The notes: generated from the letters alone by a model not told the origin. Positions 27,567-32,313 are shown, counted from the stretch's first letter. The stretch: 64,000 bases of DNA from Eledone cirrhosa (GCA_964016885.1 OZ024746.1:77872001-77936000); one strand, 5' to 3'. Numbers and translations are program-made.

Positions 27567-27600
<34 letters not shown>

Positions 27601-27655
27601 TGATTTAAAACTGCACTATCCACAAGTGTTTTTTAACCTTCATATCATGTCTTCC

Positions 27656-27726
27656 TGTTTTATCTGATGAAAACACAAATATTATTGCATGATGATATTT
27701 GTTTTTGAAATGCGCATAATAAAATA
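27656..27726 (+). ncRNA. Type-I hammerhead ribozyme with long stem II
   Basis: ttttat-CTGATGA-aaacacaaatattatt[gcat]gatgatatttgttttt-GAAA-tgcgca-TA-ataaaa. 15 of 16 stem II positions pair, and stem III ATGCGCAT is a perfect palindrome. Confidence 0.8.
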
Positions 27727-27754
27727 CATGGAACTCTTTTAACCATCTTTTGTT

Positions 27755-27785
<31 letters not shown>

Positions 27786-27796
<11 letters not shown>

Positions 27797-29343
27797 AATA
27801 TAGACATAGAATATTCGAAAATATTCTGTATGTTTATAATAAACATTTTGAAGACCTAATCGCTATAGAATAGAATACGTCACGTATTACAATTAGATTC
27901 TCGATAAAAGCAAGGGAAGTAAGTCTACGCGTTTCATTCTTGTTAGAATTCATCAGGACTACATATCCAGTGCTTTTATCGAGAATGACACAGCTAGAGA
28001 CTTATAGAATACTTAGCTGTGTACAGGAACTGGTTTGAAAGAGCGGTTGCCGGTCCGGCAGAAATTAGAAATTGGAATAAATGCTCTGAAATAGCGATAT
28101 ATATGTGAATATAGACATAGAATATTCGAAAATATTCTGTATGTTTATAATAAACATTTTGAAGACCTAATCGCTATAGAATAGAATACGTCACGTATTA
28201 CAATTAGATTCTCGATAAAAGCAAGGGAAGTAAGTCTACGCGTTTCATTCTTGTTAGAATTCATCAGGACTACATATCCAGTGCTTTTATCGAGAATGAC
28301 ACAGCTAGAGACTTATAGAATACTTAGCTGTGTACAGGAACTGGTTTGAAAGAGCGGTTGCCGGTCCGGCAGAAATTAGAAATTGGAATAAATGCTCTGA
28401 AATAGCGATATATATGTGAATATAGACATAGAATATTCGAAAATATTCTGTATGTTTATAATAAACATTTTGAAGACCTAATCGCTATAGAATAGAATAC
28501 GTCACGTATTACAATTAGATTCTCGATAAAAGCAAGGGAAGTAAGTCTACGCGTTTCATTCTTGTTAGAATTCATCAGGACTACATATCCAGTGCTTTTA
28601 TCGAGAATGACACAGCTAGAGACTTATAGAATACTTAGCTGTGTACAGGAACTGGTTTGAAAGAGCGGTTGCCGGTCCGGCAGAAATTAGAAATTGGAAT
28701 AAATGCTCTGAAATAGCGATATATATGTGAATATAGACATAGAATATTCGAAAATATTCTGTATGTTTATAATAAACATTTTGAAGACCTAATCGCTATA
28801 GAATAGAATACGTCACGTATTACAATTAGATTCTCGATAAAAGCAAGGGAAGTAAGTCTACGCGTTTCATTCTTGTTAGAATTCATCAGGACTACATATC
28901 CAGTGCTTTTATCGAGAATGACACAGCTAGAGACTTATAGAATACTTAGCTGTGTACAGGAACTGGTTTGAAAGAGCGGTTGCCGGTCCGGCAGAAATTA
29001 GAAATTGGAATAAATGCTCTGAAATAGCGATATATATGTGAATATAGACATAGAATATTCGAAAATATTCTGTATGTTTATAATAAACATTTTGAAGACC
29101 TAATCGCTATAGAATAGAATACGTCACGTATTACAATTAGATTCTCGATAAAAGCAAGGGAAGTAAGTCTACGCGTTTCATTCTTGTTAGAATTCATCAG
29201 GACTACATATCCAGTGCTTTTATCGAGAATGACACAGCTAGAGACTTATAGAATACTTAGCTGTGTACAGGAACTGGTTTGAAAGAGCGGTTGCCGGTCC
29301 GGCAGAAATTAGAAATTGGAATAAATGCTCTGAAATAGCGATA
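27786..29343 (-). repeat. Tandem array of ~5 x 311-bp hammerhead-bearing units (left arm; ribozyme sense on minus strand)
   Basis: The motif gtgaatatagacatag recurs at 27794, 28105, 28416, 28727 and 29038 (period 311). Units look identical by eye. The reverse complement of CTGATGA (tcatcag) is at 27950, 28261, 28572, 28883 and 29194. Confidence 0.95.
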
Positions 29344-31738
29344 AAAGCACTGGATATGTAGTCCTGATGAATTCTAACAAGAATGAAACGCGTAGACTTA
29401 CTTCCCTTGCTTTTATCGAGAATCTAATTGTAATACGTGACGTATTCTATTCTATAGCGATTAGGTCTTCAAAATGTTTATTATAAACATACAGAATATT
29501 TTCGAATATTCTATGTCTATATTCACATATATATCGCTATTTCAGAGCATTTATTCCAATTTCTAATTTCTGCCGGACCGGCAACCGCTCTTTCAAACCA
29601 GTTCCTGTACACAGCTAAGTATTCTATAAGTCTCTAGCTGTGTCATTCTCGATAAAAGCACTGGATATGTAGTCCTGATGAATTCTAACAAGAATGAAAC
29701 GCGTAGACTTACTTCCCTTGCTTTTATCGAGAATCTAATTGTAATACGTGACGTATTCTATTCTATAGCGATTAGGTCTTCAAAATGTTTATTATAAACA
29801 TACAGAATATTTTCGAATATTCTATGTCTATATTCACATATATATCGCTATTTCAGAGCATTTATTCCAATTTCTAATTTCTGCCGGACCGGCAACCGCT
29901 CTTTCAAACCAGTTCCTGTACACAGCTAAGTATTCTATAAGTCTCTAGCTGTGTCATTCTCGATAAAAGCACTGGATATGTAGTCCTGATGAATTCTAAC
30001 AAGAATGAAACGCGTAGACTTACTTCCCTTGCTTTTATCGAGAATCTAATTGTAATACGTGACGTATTCTATTCTATAGCGATTAGGTCTTCAAAATGTT
30101 TATTATAAACATACAGAATATTTTCGAATATTCTATGTCTATATTCACATATATATCGCTATTTCAGAGCATTTATTCCAATTTCTAATTTCTGCCGGAC
30201 CGGCAACCGCTCTTTCAAACCAGTTCCTGTACACAGCTAAGTATTCTATAAGTCTCTAGCTGTGTCATTCTCGATAAAAGCACTGGATATGTAGTCCTGA
30301 TGAATTCTAACAAGAATGAAACGCGTAGACTTACTTCCCTTGCTTTTATCGAGAATCTAATTGTAATACGTGACGTATTCTATTCTATAGCGATTAGGTC
30401 TTCAAAATGTTTATTATAAACATACAGAATATTTTCGAATATTCTATGTCTATATTCACATATATATCGCTATTTCAGAGCATTTATTCCAATTTCTAAT
30501 TTCTGCCGGACCGGCAACCGCTCTTTCAAACCAGTTCCTGTACACAGCTAAGTATTCTATAAGTCTCTAGCTGTGTCATTCTCGATAAAAGCACTGGATA
30601 TGTAGTCCTGATGAATTCTAACAAGAATGAAACGCGTAGACTTACTTCCCTTGCTTTTATCGAGAATCTAATTGTAATACGTGACGTATTCTATTCTATA
30701 GCGATTAGGTCTTCAAAATGTTTATTATAAACATACAGAATATTTTCGAATATTCTATGTCTATATTCACATATATATCGCTATTTCAGAGCATTTATTC
30801 CAATTTCTAATTTCTGCCGGACCGGCAACCGCTCTTTCAAACCAGTTCCTGTACACAGCTAAGTATTCTATAAGTCTCTAGCTGTGTCATTCTCGATAAA
30901 AGCACTGGATATGTAGTCCTGATGAATTCTAACAAGAATGAAACGCGTAGACTTACTTCCCTTGCTTTTATCGAGAATCTAATTGTAATACGTGACGTAT
31001 TCTATTCTATAGCGATTAGGTCTTCAAAATGTTTATTATAAACATACAGAATATTTTCGAATATTCTATGTCTATATTCACATATATATCGCTATTTCAG
31101 AGCATTTATTCCAATTTCTAATTTCTGCCGGACCGGCAACCGCTCTTTCAAACCAGTTCCTGTACACAGCTAAGTATTCTATAAGTCTCTAGCTGTGTCA
31201 TTCTCGATAAAAGCACTGGATATGTAGTCCTGATGAATTCTAACAAGAATGAAACGCGTAGACTTACTTCCCTTGCTTTTATCGAGAATCTAATTGTAAT
31301 ACGTGACGTATTCTATTCTATAGCGATTAGGTCTTCAAAATGTTTATTATAAACATACAGAATATTTTCGAATATTCTATGTCTATATTCACATATATAT
31401 CGCTATTTCAGAGCATTTATTCCAATTTCTAATTTCTGCCGGACCGGCAACCGCTCTTTCAAACCAGTTCCTGTACACAGCTAAGTATTCTATAAGTCTC
31501 TAGCTGTGTCATTCTCGATAAAAGCACTGGATATGTAGTCCTGATGAATTCTAACAAGAATGAAACGCGTAGACTTACTTCCCTTGCTTTTATCGAGAAT
31601 CTAATTGTAATACGTGACGTATTCTATTCTATAGCGATTAGGTCTTCAAAATGTTTATTATAAACATACAGAATATTTTCGAATATTCTATGTCTATATT
31701 CACATATATATCGCTATTTCAGAGCATTTATTCCAATT

Positions 31739-31739
<1 letters not shown>
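29339..31739 (+). repeat. Tandem array of ~7.7 x 311-bp hammerhead-bearing units (right arm, inverted relative to left arm)
   Basis: Reverse complement of the left-arm unit. CTGATGA occurs at 29364, 29675, 29986, 30297, 30608, 30919, 31230 and 31541. The arm ends at ...ttccaattt, running into (TA)n. Confidence 0.95.
29340..29422 (+). ncRNA. Minimal type-I hammerhead ribozyme (representative of 13 copies in the array)
   Basis: gtagtc-CTGATGA-attc[taacaa]gaat-GAAA-cgcg-TA-gacttac gives an intact catalytic core, a 4-bp stem II and a palindromic stem III (ACGCGT). Stem I is extended by attctcgataaaagca/tgcttttatcgagaat in full copies. Predicted GUA cleavage is after 29394. Confidence 0.88.
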
Positions 31740-31772
<33 letters not shown>

Positions 31773-32313
31773 CTTATTTCACTCATGCTTTCCATACATG
31801 TATGTGTATAATCATATATATAAAAGCTCATCTTACTCATACGTGGTTGACATTAGGAAGGACATCCAACAGTAGAAAATTTGGGGAAATACAGAATGTA
31901 TGACCAAGTAATGGCTATCTGATCTATCTTGTCTCTGACAATGACGGCAGTCCAGTCCAGTCCATGCCAAGGGGGGGGGGGCATTCCCCCCTTGGAAGTA
32001 ATGTGATGACAATGGGTGTGTGTTTACTGTTGTTTTGTGTAATGTATGAAGTGAGTGTATGAAAAGTAAACAGAAACAACAAAGCAAACAATAGAGTACA
32101 GTGAAGAAATATATTAGTTTAATGCTTGATTTTGTTAGGAAAAGAGTGTTAACGTTTCTGACACTAATCCTTCATCAGAAGACAGAATGTGAAATAAAAA
32201 GGTATAGAGTGAAAAAAACGTGTGTGTTCAGTCAGCCATTATTTTTTTAGTGGAGTAAGGGTAGATTCATATGTGTGTATATAAATATATATATGTATGT
32301 GTGTGTGTGTGTG

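Follow-up and report, generated by a model that had tools for sequence, protein, structure and literature searches.

The window, that is, the whole 64,000-nucleotide stretch of DNA that was analysed, carries two perfect arrays of a 311-nt unit on opposite strands, at 27786-29343 and 29339-31739, in which the units are 100% identical. The features of the locus are the following:

27757..27793, no strand: (TA)n target, left side; its final 8 bases match the unit too
27786..29343, minus strand: left arm, 5.01 units of 311 nt; its outer end is the short (A) site, unit position 131-140
27926..27956, minus strand: outermost minus-strand hammerhead core, repeated every 311 nt to 29200
29339..29343, no strand: inversion joint with a 5-base microhomology; the 5' ends of both arms lie here, at unit positions 138 and 256
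29339..31739, plus strand: right arm, 7.72 units of 311 nt; its outer end is the long (B) site, unit position 168
29364..29394, plus strand: first plus-strand core with helix II and helix III, recurring at a 311-nt spacing as far as 31571; cleavage is predicted after 29394
29453..29560, plus strand: candidate initiation module, unit 59-166; a predicted long hairpin with site A at 29525, site B at 29560 and a 35-nt tail between them
29645..29733, plus strand: the entire ribozyme domain; a basal helix of ~15 bp closes helix I, which contains internal loops
31740..31757, no strand: (TA)n target, right side

With a length of 311 nt and a GC content of 34.4%, the unit falls within the range used for non-LTR retrozymes (150-450 bp, <45% GC). 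Its longest stop-free stretch is only 59 codons and it holds no RT + GIY-YIG ORF; a tblastn search of the window with two local Penelope-like element (PLE) proteins gave no match. An intact hammerhead core is present in 13 of 13 units, eight on the plus strand (29364+311n) and five on the minus strand (27956+311n). The earlier note on this DNA, which had described 13 intact cores at a 311-nt spacing in non-coding units and a very recent copy, is borne out on these points.

The ribozyme is laid out with a helix I of ~6 bp, a helix II of 4 bp, and a helix III of 1 bp with a palindromic tetraloop. As passages of two published accounts describe, this is the layout of the canonical metazoan type I hammerhead, and a 1-bp helix III with a palindromic loop functions as a double hammerhead (PMC4209133, PMC7229834). 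The motif is therefore canonical in layout rather than the minimal type I that had been proposed. Two copies of the helix III segment are predicted to pair at -9.5 kcal/mol. The predicted cuts lie after 29394+311n on the plus strand and between 27926 and 27925 (+311n) on the minus strand, in exact agreement with the positions given before. The fold of the 89-nt ribozyme region reached -29.9 kcal/mol (z -6.3), and none of 200 shuffles was equally stable; when folded as a circle, the whole unit was predicted to reach -67.2 kcal/mol (z -4.5 against 200 shuffles). In the suggested check against hammerhead models, nothing in Rfam reached the gathering score, and the best sub-threshold match was Hammerhead_HH9 (17.8 bits, E 0.15).

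The earlier note had named the element a candidate retrozyme and viroid-like. By sequence criteria it is a metazoan non-LTR retrozyme, and that the family is a real retrozyme family we regard as nearly certain. It shares with the non-LTR retrozymes described in part of PMC7229834 the ~300-nt AT-rich non-coding tandem units, the type I hammerhead and the presence of PLEs in the genome. From the same account, the axolotl HHR_Amex1 has a similar 1-bp helix III with a palindromic tetraloop, and HHR_Amex2 has the U-U at the base of helix II that is found in the majority haplotype of the retrozyme (PMC7229834). The viroid-like label holds only loosely. Viroid-like replicons have ribozymes on both polarities and no DNA stage, whereas a single polarity of the unit carries the hammerhead core, and the DNA copies run into the thousands: a 29-nt internal motif of the unit occurs 17,420 times in the genome. 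Nor does the element have the symmetric terminal inverted repeats of a foldback element or MITE, as its outer ends differ by the 35-nt tail.

The host genome, of 3.0 Gb, looks like that of a microsatellite-rich animal, perhaps a cephalopod. Exact end patterns were found in the genome 1,006 times for the long (B) end and 1,189 times for the short (A) end, and capture-recapture on C1 put the number of insertions at ~1,740-1,860 loci. The first 222 Mb of C1 gave a list of 179 ends, made up of 100 A ends and the 79 of 100 B ends that lie within the interval. These included 54 divergent pairs (108/179 ends), all 54 of which were A+B, while 71/179 were without a partner under the exact patterns. We then read 136 regions, with both paired and unpaired ends, which resolved into 123 two-armed and 19 one-armed insertions. 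The two-armed insertions comprised 116 A+B, five with an end cut off or in a gap, and two others; none was A+A or B+B. This sample covers ~7% of the loci, nearly all on C1 and most selected by one perfect end; 13 of 15 loci chosen through the internal motif alone were two-armed. In the first 88 elements, A ends fell at unit 131 in 48/86 cases and B ends at unit 166 in 67/85, and the arms overlapped by 0-5 bases at the joint in 56/88. The divergence within a locus was 0.036%.

A TA or AT-rich target was observed at 256 of 261 ends, most loci having had one end selected on TA; in the 15 internal-motif loci, a TA target was present at 25 of 27 readable ends. The sole clearly non-TA target (L267) has a target duplication of 14-15 bp. 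A target repeat was scored in 29 of 120 loci, nearly all of low complexity, and in pure TA it cannot be scored. The flanks of L034 and L107 are mirror-image ends of another repeat, which suggests repeated insertion into one TA tract.

Inverted arrays of identical units may raise the question of the assembly, and public sequencing runs bear on it. Contigs of run X1 contained 11 other antisense-to-sense joints of the family. Runs X2 and X3 each gave one 53-nt contig with an exact match to 29315-29367 across the window joint, although with 29 letters per side these contigs lie below the 31-letter bar for bridging. Runs X1-X3 are one sample, possibly the source of the assembly. At the level of the family, the inverted arrays are not an assembly artefact. 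Across 20 runs (X1-X20, with 18 coded organism labels from 17 studies), 66-94% of the sampled words of the unit were present; the near-identity across labels could reflect close kin, mixed samples or recent spread.

The inner ends of the arms are scattered round the unit, with 6/246 near the cut site against 8.7 expected. The longer arm was the A arm in 51 of 116 insertions and the B arm in 65; A exceeded B by more than one unit in 32/116 and B exceeded A in 51/116, and the outer ends were fixed nonetheless. Because either arm may be longer, neither arm is a copy of the other, and because the ends stay fixed, both outer ends are best read as start sites. That they are start sites on one template is probable. 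An alternative is that one arm was reverse-transcribed and the other formed through self-priming of a fold-back, a route put forward for inverted PLE joints and, in part of one published account, for rotifer PLEs (PMC3846280). This would fit the haplotype and register common to both arms and the microhomology at the joints. The excess of more than one unit in either direction with fixed outer ends argues against it, as does the fact that the 48/86 A ends at 131 stop short of the TA-like stretch; already largely refuted, fold-back self-priming is very improbable.

The PLE signature consists of a 30-40 bp tail at one end, an inverted truncated copy and a TA bias, as set out in part of a published account (PMC8557442). 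The retrozyme family matches this signature, with a head-to-head inverted 5'-truncated copy, modal ends at 131 and 166 (35 nt apart) and a TA target. In the available part of the report on the anole PLE, the purified protein cuts both DNA strands and extends them. Its synthesis begins at two internal positions of the RNA, between which the tail lies, and the protein is a predicted dimer (PMC11167929). The earlier note had proposed mobilisation in trans, on the grounds that the unit is without an RT ORF, and this stands, as judged from the sequence; the family-wide signature of two arms and two ends, which the note had not seen, points to the likely mobiliser. Mobilisation of the retrozyme in trans by a PLE enzyme is very probable.

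Candidate enzymes are present in the same genome, which has 10,597 GIY-YIG candidates and includes RT + GIY-YIG ORFs. The local PLEs have a cysteine linker of the Neptune/Nematis type (CX4CxxC). Two local RT + GIY-YIG families are found as divergent pairs, one end long and the other short, in (TA)n; upstream of the ends, both families have a hammerhead-like motif whose tetraloop is palindromic. The first, an autonomous family (L120, L121, L125, L130), has ends ~65 nt apart in (TA)n and a hammerhead-like core variant in which U replaces the usual C3 and A the usual G8. The second is a young family (L123, L126, L129), in which the arms of L129 differ at 1 of 1,086 bases. Its hammerhead is built like the majority form of the retrozyme, with no sequence match to it, and this family is the best candidate for the driver by age and layout. 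The local PLE tails measure ~65 and 55-60 nt, compared with 35 nt in the retrozyme. Among 61 GIY-YIG loci of the 10,597 candidates, no parent PLE with the unit as its terminal repeat was found, and none shared the initiation module. One lead to a parent PLE was resolved to a one-armed insertion beside unique DNA.

An older sister family (sister family 2; L042:2440-2880 and L171-L200) provided insight into what sets the ends. It has a 314-nt unit with copies 87-96% alike. Within the candidate initiation module (unit 59-166) it retains unit 60-155 at 78% identity, and it ends at equivalent sites, although it is without the internal ATATATAT. It is therefore the RNA, rather than microhomology with TA, that determines the A end. 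The ribozyme has diverged; the ~15 bp basal helix is retained with a changed sequence. The end rule of this family is looser, with 13 two-armed insertions distributed as 8 A+B, 4 A+A and 1 B+B.

The variants within loci were used to characterise the template. Arm-fixed variants were common to both arms at 158/160 sites, and the 119 loci with full coverage (of 134) held 42 haplotypes, of which 31 were singletons and one singleton spanned 37.7 units. To become fixed in all units, a variant must pass through a bottleneck of one unit. The source arrays of the singleton haplotypes may lie elsewhere, given the ~7% sampling mostly on C1. Within arms of at least three units, 121 variants were single-copy and 8 multi-copy, and the units were therefore mostly made at once. 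Over 724 crossings of the cut site, none of the 95 private substitutions lay 5 nt or less from it, where 3.1 would be expected. As the cut site is crossed without scars and inner ends are not enriched there, the template was continuous; template jumping between linear monomers is rejected, since there are no scars at the cut site. No fixed variant fell in the 12 core positions (0/39; ~1.5 expected, which is not significant alone), and two fall on the free N7 position. We consider a monomer circle to be the likely usual template.

Register-matched variants are not given by a monomer circle. At three loci (L089, L157, L170), the variants (8 sites) lie solely in the outermost one or two units, and they do so in both arms with matching register. 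Both primers therefore read the same template positions, and these cases point towards multimer templates. For L089 and L157, conversion between the paired arms is a possible alternative source. At L170, two units of one haplotype are followed by up to 16 of another in both arms, suggesting either a multimeric template or a joint switch of template. Such loci are a minority: among 71,880 doubly covered bases, 58 variants were unshared and register sharing was seen at these three loci only.

The same PLE double priming might usually have used a linear template, namely the uncleaved multimer transcript of an existing array. The register-matched variants at the three loci agree with this, the scar-free crossings of the cut site fit it as well, and ribozymes with a weak helix III are described in part of PMC7229834 as poor at cleaving as monomers. 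Two further observations bear on the circle, each from part of its source: in vitro, the anole PLE used uncleaved RNA (PMC11167929), which speaks for the linear multimer and against the circle, and 8/9 Xenopus dimers did not cleave (bioRxiv 10.64898/2026.07.22.740005). However, a new variant on a linear multimer could not be fixed in every unit, as the 42 haplotypes with their 31 singletons would demand; register sharing at three loci is set against the 58 unshared variants; the register is broken at L145, where an allele switch lies inside one arm only; and each round would shorten the arrays. A linear multimer as the usual template is unlikely. Alternatively, the circle could first have been copied from RNA to RNA into a multimer, as in viroids, and then reverse-transcribed by the PLE. 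This would account for the monomer bottleneck as well as for the register-matched variants seen at a few loci, and RNA-RNA replication has been named as a possibility for mussel retrozymes. It requires an extra step, and the ribozyme is on one polarity only, and we find it improbable.

Some arms have a further history at the DNA level. The 45-unit arm at L270/L271 (G000:C1:97461509-97475587) has irregular multi-copy variants, from later DNA-level expansion or assembly error; L078/L079 have multi-copy variants as well, and the longest arms show higher-order duplications. From the multi-copy variants at these two places it follows that DNA-level expansion occurs too. These duplications, along with the 100% identity of the window units, speak for a satellite or foldback element made purely at the DNA level, or else for an artefact of the assembly. 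The asymmetric ends, dispersed loci, locus-specific haplotypes and star-like variants are against such an origin, as are the inversion joints in the public-run contigs, and it is the least probable of the explanations considered.

The array is thus best explained as one retrozyme insertion that a PLE enzyme copied in trans from two primers on a single template, in most cases a monomer circle, and we give this reading a probability of roughly two in three. Transcripts of an array would be cut as double hammerheads at GUA, and the cut RNAs would close to the predicted 310/311-nt circles. The PLE reverse transcriptase-endonuclease would then nick both strands of a (TA)n site, with one DNA end priming at unit 166 and the other at unit 131. 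Both polymerases would go round the circle, the number of turns varying, and the two cDNA ends would be joined by 0-5 bases of microhomology, the products of which are seen in the genome. A minority of events may have used a multimeric RNA template or a template switch, and A-to-I editing of the template may account for some of the heritable A-to-G changes.

The last step is suggested by the spectrum of variants. On the ribozyme strand, fixed variants were A-to-G at 11 sites and T-to-C at 6 (p=0.14), so that the excess is weaker with more data than in the earlier count of 10 against 3 sites (p=0.027). Private variants lean the opposite way (10 vs 26; Fisher p=0.016). When recurrences on different backgrounds were counted, the numbers were 19 vs 6 (p=0.002). 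A paired adenosine after U, or in UAG, is a context preferred by ADAR. At the recurrent sites (21, 260 and 277) the adenosine is paired and preceded by U, and at one of them it lies in UAG. The A-to-G excess is a hint of RNA editing, and recombination between haplotypes could be another source of the recurrence. The fullest version of the mechanism, two-primer rolling-circle reverse transcription by a dimeric PLE protein on one circle with A-to-I edits fixed in every unit, is tentative and somewhat doubtful as a whole. If it is true, it represents a natural rolling-circle, two-ended target-primed reverse transcription, in which RNA editing passes into inherited DNA and drives heritable change in the element, and the tail and inverted repeat of PLEs are simply the two priming sites of the dimer.

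In the literature compared, the route of animal retrozymes to new loci has been proposed and not shown, and a full mechanism for the tail and inverted repeat of PLEs is lacking. Circle-templated cDNA and mobilisation by PLEs were put forward in this way by Cervera and de la Pena (2020, PMC7229834), where the words 'inverted', 'target site', 'microsatellite' and 'octopus' have no occurrence in the main text. Unlike the retrozymes of the sections of that paper compared here, the present insertions are two-armed with fixed ends, and are known from DNA alone. Li, Clavereau and Pollet (2026, bioRxiv 10.64898/2026.07.22.740005) regard animal retrozymes as non-autonomous derivatives of PLEs; in the part of the preprint considered, this is based on co-occurrence and pLTR similarity, mostly in vertebrates, local tandem expansion by unequal crossover is favoured, and the anatomy of insertions is not described. 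In contrast to that part, the link to PLEs here is the integration footprint, with no parent pLTR in the 61 GIY-YIG loci. The titles and abstract openings searched held no description of a two-armed retrozyme insertion or of a cephalopod retrozyme, though supplements could list the family, and the main text of an Octopus vulgaris repeat paper (PMC13282606) has no match for hammerhead or ribozyme.

As portrayed in portions of PMC8557442, PMC3846280 and PMC11167929, EN+ PLEs of the Neptune/Nematis type have the same head-to-head copy, 30-40 bp tail and (TA)n target, and a hammerhead upstream of two internal start sites. The retrozyme differs from them in being without an ORF, in having arms that are multi-turn concatemers of a short unit, and in a tail asymmetry that is near-obligate. 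The family offers ~1,800 very young events under a strict rule of one long and one short end. Together with a candidate initiation module of 108 nt and the candidate enzymes that this genome encodes, these events make the copying step directly testable in vitro. In L1 twin priming, too, two primers at a single break yield an inverted product whose divergent halves are joined through microhomology. The retrozyme arrays resemble that product; unlike L1, their arms start 35 nt apart, the same sequence is copied many times and there is no poly(A).

Further hammerhead-like sequences were observed in the window and in other loci. A second, unrelated hammerhead-like element with a long helix II and a palindromic helix III is located at 27600-27757 (+). 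It ends at the (TA)n into which the array inserted, and has 85-99% copies in at least nine other loci. A lone core-like motif at 32151-32178 (-) has unconvincing helices and is perhaps a decayed hammerhead. Inverted or tandem hammerhead families of other sequence were seen at L130:8495-8810, L125:7100-7430 and L206.
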